Notes under the pieces: generated by a model
The model's input: the letters and a program-made list of their open reading frames with translations, nothing else
What the model was told of the DNA's origin: nothing
The model's database searches: none
Translations under genes and position numbers: made by a program
Shown: in pieces, positions 28,950 through 29,762 of the stretch
How the letters are laid out: each line of letters begins with the position of its first letter
Numbering within the stretch: the stretch's first letter is position 1
DNA from: Escherichia coli
GTDB lineage: Bacteria > Pseudomonadota > Gammaproteobacteria > Enterobacterales > Enterobacteriaceae
Length of the DNA stretch: 64,000 nt
Reading direction: 5' to 3' (one strand)
Assembly: GCF_003334405.1 (NCBI RefSeq)
Contig: NZ_QOWM01000003.1

Positions 28950-29762
28950 ATGATCATTACACAAGCAGACCTGCGAGAATGGCGTATCGGAGCGGTGATG
29001 TATCGCTGGTTCCTGCGCCATTTCCCACGCGGCGGTAGTTATGCCGATATTCATCATGCACTGATTGAGGAAGGATATACGGACTGGGCGGAGAGTCTGG
29101 TTGAGTATGCGTGGAAAAAATGGCTGGCGGATGAAAACTTCGCGCATCAGGAAGTTTCCTCTATGCAAAAACTGGCCACAGACCCCGGAGAGAGACCATT
29201 TTGCAGTCAGTTTGCCCGCAGCGACGATCATGCTCGCATCGGCTGTTGTGAGGATAACGCCAGAATCGCAACCGCTGGGTATGCCGCGCAAATTGCCAGT
29301 ATGGGTTATAGCGTGCGGATTGGAAGTGTCGGCTTTAACAGTCACATTGGCAGCTCCGGTGAACGCGCACGGGTTGCTGTAACCGGTAATTCTTCGCGGA
29401 TAAGCAGCGCTGGAGATAGCAGTCGGATTGCGAATACCGGAATGCGAGTACGCGTTTGTACATTGGGTGAACGGTGTCATGTCGCCAGTAATGGTGACCT
29501 GGTGCAAATCGCCAGCTTTGGCGCAAACGCCAGAATTGCCAACAGCGGCGACAATGTACACATCATTGCCAGCGGTGAAAATTCAACGGTAGTGAGCACG
29601 GGCGTGGTCGACTCAATTATTCTCGGGCCAGGAGGAAGCGCCGCACTGGCATATCATGACGGCGAAAGAGTTCGCTTCGCCGTCGCCATTGAAGGTGAAA
29701 ACAATATTCGAGCCGGAGTCCGCTATCGTCTTAATGAACAGCATCAGTTTGTTGAGTGCTGA
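28950..29762 (+). CDS. ydhT: uncharacterised protein with 15 tandem nonapeptide repeats
   Basis: 270-aa ORF; residues ~91-225 form 15 consecutive 9-residue units, pattern xxx[RHQ][IV]xxxG. Confidence 0.85.
   Translation: MIITQADLREWRIGAVMYRWFLRHFPRGGSYADIHHALIEEGYTDWAESLVEYAWKKWLADENFAHQEVSSMQKLATDPGERPFCSQFARSDDHARIGCCEDNARIATAGYAAQIASMGYSVRIGSVGFNSHIGSSGERARVAVTGNSSRISSAGDSSRIANTGMRVRVCTLGERCHVASNGDLVQIASFGANARIANSGDNVHIIASGENSTVVSTGVVDSIILGPGGSAALAYHDGERVRFAVAIEGENNIRAGVRYRLNEQHQFVEC

Follow-up and report, generated by a model that had tools for sequence, protein, structure and literature searches.

The question raised by this locus is what kind of protein is encoded by ydhT, the final gene of the ydhYVWXUT operon of Escherichia coli, and what such a protein may do beside an oxidoreductase. 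The gene lies in a window of 64,000 nucleotides (the whole stretch of DNA analysed here, from NCBI RefSeq assembly GCF_003334405.1, contig NZ_QOWM01000003.1, to which window positions refer). An original prediction, made by reading the sequence alone, had recognised in ydhT 15 uninterrupted nonapeptide repeats and a probable beta-solenoid. The explanation that we favour as a whole, with fair though far from full confidence, is that YdhT would be built on a calcium-free solenoid, belong to a module of phage type and act as a scaffold or adaptor for YdhYVWX. The gene, which starts 3 nt past the ydhU stop codon, and the parts of its product are as follows.

28950..29762, plus strand: ydhT coding sequence, 813 nt, 270 amino acids (aa) plus stop codon, according to the list of open reading frames (ORFs), the RefSeq annotation and NCBIfam NF007410.
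28950..29180, plus strand: N-terminal head, residues 1-77, five helices in the AlphaFold2 (AF2) model; the YdhT_N domain, PF27195 in newer Pfam.
29199..29225, plus strand: degenerate first coil unit FCSQFARSD, residues 84-92, in register with the repeats, with a strand (E) at 87-90; the run detector reaches residue 84.
29226..29630, plus strand: fifteen nonapeptide repeats, residues 93-227, a predicted beta-solenoid with one strand per repeat.
29631..29759, plus strand: C-terminal cap GGSAALAYHDGERVRFAVAIEGENNIRAGVRYRLNEQHQFVEC, residues 228-270, beta-rich, delimited by AF2 strands and column entropy.

The window comes from E. coli K-12 and its ydhT is 100% identical to that of MG1655; NCBIfam NF007410 covers residues 2-270 of YdhT with 489.7 bits (cut-off 300). 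All fifteen nonapeptides are indeed present and in register, from DHARIGCCE, starting at residue 93, to VVDSIILGP, ending at residue 227. The array first proposed was thus real, and only its placement, at 29220-29624 and from about residue 91, was 6 nt (two residues) too far left. Ahead of these 15 clear units stands the degenerate sixteenth, at residues 84-92. The repeat consensus is [DEY]-[NSR]-[AVS]-[RHQ]-[IV]-[AG]-[ST]-x-G, and the columns initially described as conserved are so, with I/V at position 5 in 15/15 units, G at position 9 in 13/15 and R/H/Q at position 4 in 13/15. The 9-residue periodicity is far above chance: over residues 93-227, the mean BLOSUM62 autocorrelation was +1.49 for lag 9, +1.27 to +1.36 for lags 18 to 45 and -0.5 to -1.3 for the other lags, and in shuffled sequences (n=5000) the maximum over lags was -0.24 on average and 0.32 at its highest. 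At the DNA level, identity was 0.43-0.46 at lags of 27, 54 and 81 nt, versus 0.22-0.32 at other multiples of 3, as expected from the 27-nt period originally put forward. Tandem Repeats Finder detected no 27-nt array in ydhT and returned a single chance 14-nt pair. A period visible by DNA autocorrelation only, with no such array, implies that the repeats are old and are kept at the protein level.

The probable beta-solenoid was borne out by structure prediction. With 61 homologues, AF2 gave a mean predicted local distance difference test score (pLDDT) of 93.9 and a predicted template modelling score (pTM) of 0.89, with pLDDT values of 89-98 across residues 91-270 and of 73 in the 81-90 block, which contains the first strand. 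Strands of 4-5 residues begin at each ninth residue from 87 to 216, longer strands are found within 220-269, and the solenoid was obtained again from an independent shallow alignment. The region is predicted to be ordered, with strands at 9-residue spacing and high confidence, and homologues keep the repeat while differing by whole units. Residues 84-227 would very probably form a calcium-independent parallel beta-solenoid, in which each nonapeptide provides one short strand and a tight turn. Mechanistically, the turn would be made by Gly at position 9 with D/E/N at positions 1-2; I/V at position 5 would fill a narrow core, to which small residues at positions 3 and 7 probably contribute, and R/H/Q at position 4 and A/G at position 6 would face outside. 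The solenoid rod would be flanked by the five-helix YdhT_N head (helices 5-10, 15-24, 31-40, 44-58 and 62-77) and by a beta-rich C-terminal module of 43 residues (strands 230-236, 241-247, 258-261 and 267-269).

Two repeats probably make up one 18-residue coil, with a two-sheet, beta-roll-like cross-section, so that the model would contain about 8 coils in a rod of roughly 35-40 Å. This is suggested by strand lengths, which alternate 5,4,5,4,5,4,5 over residues 105-163, and by the fact that each nonapeptide, like those of RTX proteins, has a single strongly hydrophobic residue. The same observations bear on a three-sided solenoid, in which, as in tailspike or pectate-lyase-type beta-helices, each coil would take up three nonapeptides (27 residues). 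We consider this reading distinctly unlikely: the alternation of strand lengths has a period of 2 and not 3, one I/V per nine residues would, by analogy with RTX, be too little for a 27-residue triangular core, and among the solved solenoids to which YdhT is structurally similar, the best matches, MpAFP and CsgA, are both narrow.

The nine-residue period of the two-repeat coil favoured here is shared with the RTX beta-roll (GGxGxDxUx; CyaA blocks IV-V, PDB 6sus), from which the YdhT repeat had been said to differ. At the motif level this is correct, in line with the lack of any GG.G.D by regular expression and of any HemolysinCabind match in Pfam. YdhT indeed has one Gly per repeat, has neither the GGxGxD calcium turn nor a C-terminal secretion signal, and cannot depend on calcium in the same way; despite this difference in motif, its fold is probably RTX-like in cross-section. 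The shared period could also speak for a secreted RTX-like calcium beta-roll, or a collagen-like or ice-nucleation repeat, as could the names of some homologues ('collagen-like', 'ice nucleation protein', 'hemolysin IA') and weak, sub-threshold Collagen matches of Pfam in 17/114 relatives at E <= 0.1. By contrast, Gly recurs every ninth residue only, and not every third, in a region predicted to be ordered beta structure; inspection of the N-terminus (MIITQADLREWRIG...) revealed no signal peptide; no type I secretion genes lie near ydhT, whose neighbours are oxidoreductase genes and ydhS; and a profile search of YdhT with the Pfam-A repeat families (HemolysinCabind, Hexapep, Pentapeptide, Bactofilin and others) gave no match even at E <= 10. 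Secreted repeats of any of these kinds are thus extremely improbable, and the names 'collagen-like', 'ice nucleation protein' and 'hemolysin' reflect, as far as the sequences tell, the Gly periodicity alone.

Comparison with other solenoids leads to a similar distinction. MpAFP region IV (Marinomonas primoryensis, PDB 3p4g), a beta-helical antifreeze domain that depends on calcium, belongs to an extracellular adhesin with 19-residue calcium-binding repeats and, at 11% identity, shows no sequence relationship to YdhT. CsgA (PDB 8c50, 8enq) has repeats of ~20-23 residues, one per coil, is secreted and polymerises end to end, whereas YdhT is capped at both ends and nothing suggests its export. 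Left-handed hexapeptide helices, pentapeptide-repeat proteins and bactofilins are, like YdhT, cytoplasmic short-repeat beta-solenoids, and act as oligomerisation platforms, DNA mimics or polymers; their periods are 6, 5 and ~18, with triangular or square coils, whereas YdhT has a period of 9 and no Pfam match. A role of YdhT as a DNA mimic was rejected, the net charge of the repeats being ~0 in YdhT (11 K+R versus 10 D+E) and in 110 relatives. YdhT, a protein named before but uncharacterised, can be described as showing a known class of fold in a new sequence variant; the present analysis adds a family-wide modular architecture and a phage early-gene context.

Conservation of the repeats was examined in orthologues. 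The ydhT gene was found in 5418/5426 complete E. coli genomes, and the ratio of nonsynonymous to synonymous substitution rates (dN/dS) within Escherichia, 0.03-0.15 for the repeats and 0.05-0.10 for the whole gene, indicates that the repeats are conserved and under purifying selection. Each repeat retains its own sequence across 19 ungapped 270-aa orthologues, with position 9 (Gly) and positions 2, 4 and 6 best conserved (entropy 0.31-0.41 at the latter three) and position 3 most variable (1.07); repeats 3, 4, 9, 11, 13 and 15 count among the conserved ones. Over the same orthologues, mean column entropy was 0.22 in the cap, versus 0.51 in the repeats and 0.61 in the head. Within the protein, as in the family at large, no part is more conserved than the cap; G229, A231, Y235, D237, G238, R240, R242, F243, G249, E250, A255 and Y259 are invariant in alignment A3. 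The head has a conserved motif of its own, L..W.(AC)..G..WF...FP.GG.Y (alignments A3 and A4), and homologues of YdhT carry precomputed PF27195 assignments. The repeat is kept in orthologues of Citrobacter, Proteus, Edwardsiella and others, and several length differences correspond to whole units: a 225-aa form lacks 5 repeats, and in a 198-aa E. coli allele repeat 3 is joined to repeat 11 at a common QIAS, with the loss of 8 repeats. Forms of 317-333 aa also exist, in which the extra length is not always a multiple of nine. Whole-unit changes in repeat number occur in this family on laboratory time scales, as shown by an experimental-evolution clone of Serratia symbiotica CWBI with a 54-bp deletion, exactly two repeats, in 'ydhT_1' (1413 nt / 470 aa, position 782,372), a gene located inside a mitomycin-C-inducible prophage region (771,733 + 48 kb) (PMC12505973).

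Beyond orthologues, a full HMMER scan of 1.84 billion representatives yielded at least 611 clusters (50% identity) at E <= 1e-3, most of which match residues ~85-270 only, i.e., the solenoid and cap. Members of this family are 200 to 546 aa long, with 5 to 26 repeats counted by the run detector, a consensus of [D/Y/N]-[S/Y/N]-[A/S]-[Q/K/R]-[I/L]-[A/G]-[S/A]-S-G and a net charge near zero (110 relatives); the cap consensus is conserved across alignments A1-A3. Repeats within a protein have a median pairwise identity of 0.53 in the family versus 0.29 in E. coli YdhT, which suggests that phage-type repeats are homogenised and those of YdhT individually specialised. In front of the solenoid, the heads are exchanged: YdhT_N, DUF7666 (PF24703), DarG-like macro and PcfJ-like heads were found, together with a related CGxGLHG-type head, sometimes preceded by a macro domain. 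DUF7666 is the head of 51/114 family representatives and has no match in YdhT itself, where YdhT_N takes its place. Proteins with DUF7666, and phrog_4433, an uncharacterised phage and prophage group that matches YdhT residues 100-270 (E 1.7e-6), are true homologues in the solenoid and cap, with Foldseek matches in AFDB and BFVD; DUF7666 proteins differ from YdhT in a CxxGFHxC-type head motif, more homogeneous repeats and a phage-borne location. Pfam-A scans of YdhT, of its head alone and of the relative P0085 gave no match, nor did PADLOC defence models match YdhT or 3/4 of the relatives tested. A particular arrangement was observed in P0081 and P0089 (loci L043-L045, gene 6001-7473), where a DarG-like macrodomain (PADLOC DarG, E 4.5e-17 for P0081) and a CGxGLHG-type head precede 16-26 near-identical nonapeptides and a YdhT-type cap. 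Their contigs carry an integrase, ParB and a GpA terminase, one of them with a faint Lar restriction-alleviation neighbour, and these macro-headed proteins could be anti-DarT counter-defence proteins.

As the genomic context of these homologues indicates, solenoid and cap form a module of a large family, most of whose members are encoded among the early, non-structural genes of temperate phages. In the phage loci examined, the homologues were never found in tail modules, and early-region placement was observed in phages GF-2, phiKX1, Shpa and Dulem virus 31 and in loci L041, L043, L047, L049 and L050. The YdhT-like gene follows an N-like antiterminator in Edwardsiella phage GF-2 and an antirepressor in Komagataeibacter phiKX1; in three IMG/VR lambdoid contigs it is preceded by a CI repressor gene and followed by recombination or exonuclease genes. 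Gene order in L047 and L049 is YdhT-like, phrog_1376, then Bet/RecT and exonuclease, and in L050 a large exonuclease comes directly after the YdhT-like gene. Other members follow helicase/primase or replisome genes, or lie in an integrase-ParB-terminase element. In L049, a BstA abortive-infection gene (4016-4960; phrog_6287, E 4e-118) stands between the CI repressor and the YdhT-like gene. In three lambdoid phages, the gene for an uncharacterised phrog_1376 protein of ~300-350 aa comes soon after the YdhT-like gene and before cIII or Bet/RecT-exonuclease. This protein may be a functional partner of the YdhT-like protein; its genes are the following.

L047, 6872-7789: phrog_1376.
L049, 7374-8444: phrog_1376.
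L002 (GF-2, gp53), 7538-8464: phrog_1376.

YdhW was considered as a relative of this phage neighbour and rejected as unrelated. CP025887.1 ('Escherichia phage 503046', 23,083 bp), with a 98.9% identical, full-length ydhT at 18751-19560, was likewise set aside as a phage homologue, being most likely chromosomal DNA filed as phage. In lambda and P22, the same early region contains ral, gam/abc, kil and sieB, and by analogy the position of the YdhT-like genes offers a lead towards a role in host control or counter-defence.

This context raises the possibility that YdhT is a domesticated phage early gene, riding at the 3' end of the operon with a function unrelated to the oxidoreductase: as its phage relatives would, it would bind some general target of host or phage and take part in host takeover, counter-defence, exclusion or the control of recombination. 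Full-length homologues including YdhT_N, located between CI repressor/N and Bet/RecT-exonuclease in four lambdoid phages, are in line with such an origin, as are phage neighbours such as BstA, the faint Lar match and anti-repressors, the branch with a DarG-like macro head, and a machine-learning study that lists ydhT among the features predicting infection by one phage (PMC12579225). However, no phage genes flank ydhT in the window, and the gene is near-universal in E. coli, under strong purifying selection and not matched by PADLOC. Moreover, its operon-end position is conserved in Escherichia, Citrobacter, Proteus and Edwardsiella, even after the loss of ydhU. We consider a function unrelated to the oxidoreductase, the main rival to the scaffold or adaptor, somewhat unlikely.

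The operon itself points to the scaffold or adaptor that we prefer. Its other genes are annotated as follows.

24032..24658, plus strand: ydhY.
24679..26781, plus strand: ydhV.
26794..27432, plus strand: ydhW.
27496..28164, plus strand: ydhX.
28161..28946, plus strand: ydhU (phsC).

The order ydhY-V-W-X-U-T is conserved in Escherichia, Citrobacter and Proteus (at least 30 loci, from a search with alignment A3, whose pattern is specific to YdhT_N-type cap sequences). In Edwardsiella tarda (L046, CP100802.1, genes 3690-8954), the operon is reduced to ydhY-V-W-X-T, having kept ydhT without the cytochrome b gene ydhU; it adjoins the nap nitrate-reductase cluster in this species. The operon is regulated by FNR/NarL/NarP according to the literature, and YdhV is a molybdenum-bis-molybdopterin (Mo-bis-MPT) enzyme, a class V tungsten/molybdenum oxidoreductase of which reviews count YdhT as a 'subunit' without evidence (PMC13328260, PMC12096430). 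By inspection, the N-terminus of YdhX carries a twin-arginine motif, SFTRRKF (SFTRRKFVLGMG), whichever start is used, and YdhX is probably exported by the twin-arginine translocation (Tat) pathway, with YdhT devoid of a signal peptide. The longest ydhX ORF begins 17 codons upstream of the RefSeq start (window 27445-27510). Among the matches listed, homologues of YdhW were found in Escherichia and Citrobacter only.

Taken together, enterobacterial YdhT would be a vertically inherited, cytoplasmic and non-catalytic copy of the solenoid-plus-cap module, the latter two properties being suggested by the absence of conserved Cys, His or acidic constellations. It could serve the YdhYVWX oxidoreductase as a rigid scaffold or adaptor that binds proteins, for example in cofactor loading or before Tat export, with the individually conserved surfaces of its repeats as the binding face. 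A binding surface fits the orthologue-specific conservation of the outward positions, and a partner among YdhYVWX fits the tight and long-lived linkage of ydhT with ydhYVWX. An adaptor in assembly or export is favoured because YdhX has a twin-arginine motif and the operon contains no recognised maturation chaperone; this specific role remains tentative, and we give it somewhat less than an even chance. The TorD/DmsD/NarJ and NapD chaperones of Tat-exported molybdoenzymes offer a parallel in that YdhT, like them, would be small, cytoplasmic and non-redox, its gene standing last in a molybdoenzyme operon that includes a Tat-signal subunit. These chaperones are all-helical or ferredoxin-like, with no similarity to YdhT in sequence or fold, and the analogy is one of gene position only.

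A scaffold could also act on cofactors directly, as SufB/SufD do, and YdhT might then serve the assembly of Fe-S clusters or another cofactor for the three Fe-S proteins of the operon. This is very unlikely, since Suf-type scaffolds score no better against YdhT than dozens of unrelated solenoids and show no sequence similarity to it. The Fe-S idea was rejected because neither Cys nor His is conserved: Citrobacter lacks the CC of repeat 1, E. coli has GGS where the family has GGC, and several orthologues have lost the C-terminal Cys.

Several points weigh against the protein-binding scaffold or adaptor for YdhYVWX, or against the solenoid on which it would be built. Searches of PDB sequences, with YdhT and with its head alone, found no solved structure of any relative, and AF2 builds solenoids readily from repeats, so that the coil size and handedness of YdhT are ones that we infer. 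A fusion model of YdhW-(GGGGS)6-YdhT, limited to a single partner and a linker fusion, gave a pTM of 0.54 and no confident docking. YdhT is the fastest-evolving member of its operon, with an identity between E. coli and Proteus of 35%, versus 42% for YdhW, 61% for YdhU, 69% for YdhX, 78% for YdhY and 80% for YdhV. A frameshifted allele represents 169 database sequences (P0006, P0034; window 29640-29862); past GGSAALA it enters the +1 frame (IMTAKEFASPSPLKV..., ORF 29656..29862), loses the cap and encodes 287 aa. In some lineages of E. coli or Shigella this allele probably represents a pseudogene, and the circulation of a cap-less form suggests that ydhT is dispensable in some strains. Rapid evolution and the frameshifted allele also count in favour of a domesticated phage gene, and the occurrence of relatives in phages with no oxidoreductase nearby suggests that the ancestral role of the module was unrelated to the YdhV enzyme. 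In the literature searched, no functional or structural study of YdhT or of any family member was found, nor anything relevant on DUF7666 and nonapeptide beta-solenoids in phages. An apparent genetic interaction of ydhT (PMC5120140) was discarded as a misprint for yhdT.

A broader proposal would accommodate both contexts: among the early genes of temperate phages, solenoid and cap would provide a general 'presentation scaffold', bringing swappable heads to host or defence targets, and YdhT an anciently domesticated copy, re-used as an assembly or export adaptor for a Tat-dependent molybdoenzyme. We regard it as speculative and rather unlikely; if true, the effectors of host takeover or counter-defence would include a modular family that had so far gone unrecognised. 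The present analysis proposes a three-part architecture (head, calcium-free solenoid and conserved cap) for an E. coli K-12 protein to which the literature searched assigns neither fold nor function. It sets YdhT apart from the redox subunits of a class V tungsten/molybdenum oxidoreductase and links it to hundreds of unannotated phage early proteins, some with a DarG-like macrodomain, encoded where anti-defence and host-control genes are known to lie. A calcium-free beta-roll whose length varies naturally could moreover interest protein engineers.

The original prediction had also stated that the periodicity of the repeats keeps the antisense strand open. An antisense ORF does exist at 28815..29561, with 248 codons, codon-aligned with ydhU and ydhT, and one might take it for a genuine overlapping gene, kept open by the repeat. 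The repeat is not the sole cause of this open frame, as ~45% of the ORF lies outside the repeats. What leaves the frame open is an uninterrupted run of 255 sense codons free of TTA, CTA and TCA, an absence explained by a Leu-poor region (13 Leu in the stretch) where Ser is mostly encoded by AGC or AGT (19/26 in the whole ydhT). Such avoidance has a chance of ~0.003 given the amino acids and the average codon usage of E. coli, which may speak for a gene, as may the listing of ydhS-ydhT as a convergent transcriptional overlap ('excludon') in E. coli RNA sequencing (PMC12288877). The length of the ORF, by contrast, is not unusual here: over the six frames of the window, 40 stretches stay open for 250 codons or more. 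In E. whittamii and a divergent E. coli lineage the frame is interrupted at residues 71, 136, 212 and 222, in E. albertii, Citrobacter and Proteus it is interrupted many times, and the high synonymous divergence of the sense gene together with its low dN/dS points to selection on the sense frame only. An antisense gene is hardly credible on these grounds, and the ORF was rejected as a codon-usage accident that is not conserved.

Two neighbours of ydhT complete the description of the locus. The convergent ydhS (29774..31378, minus strand) has its stop codon just 11 nt from that of ydhT (window 29760-29776). Farther on, 2.6 kb downstream, ydhQ (window ~32380-33640) is annotated as an 'AIDA repeat-containing protein' and is a second candidate for a repeat-built beta-helix, unrelated to ydhT.

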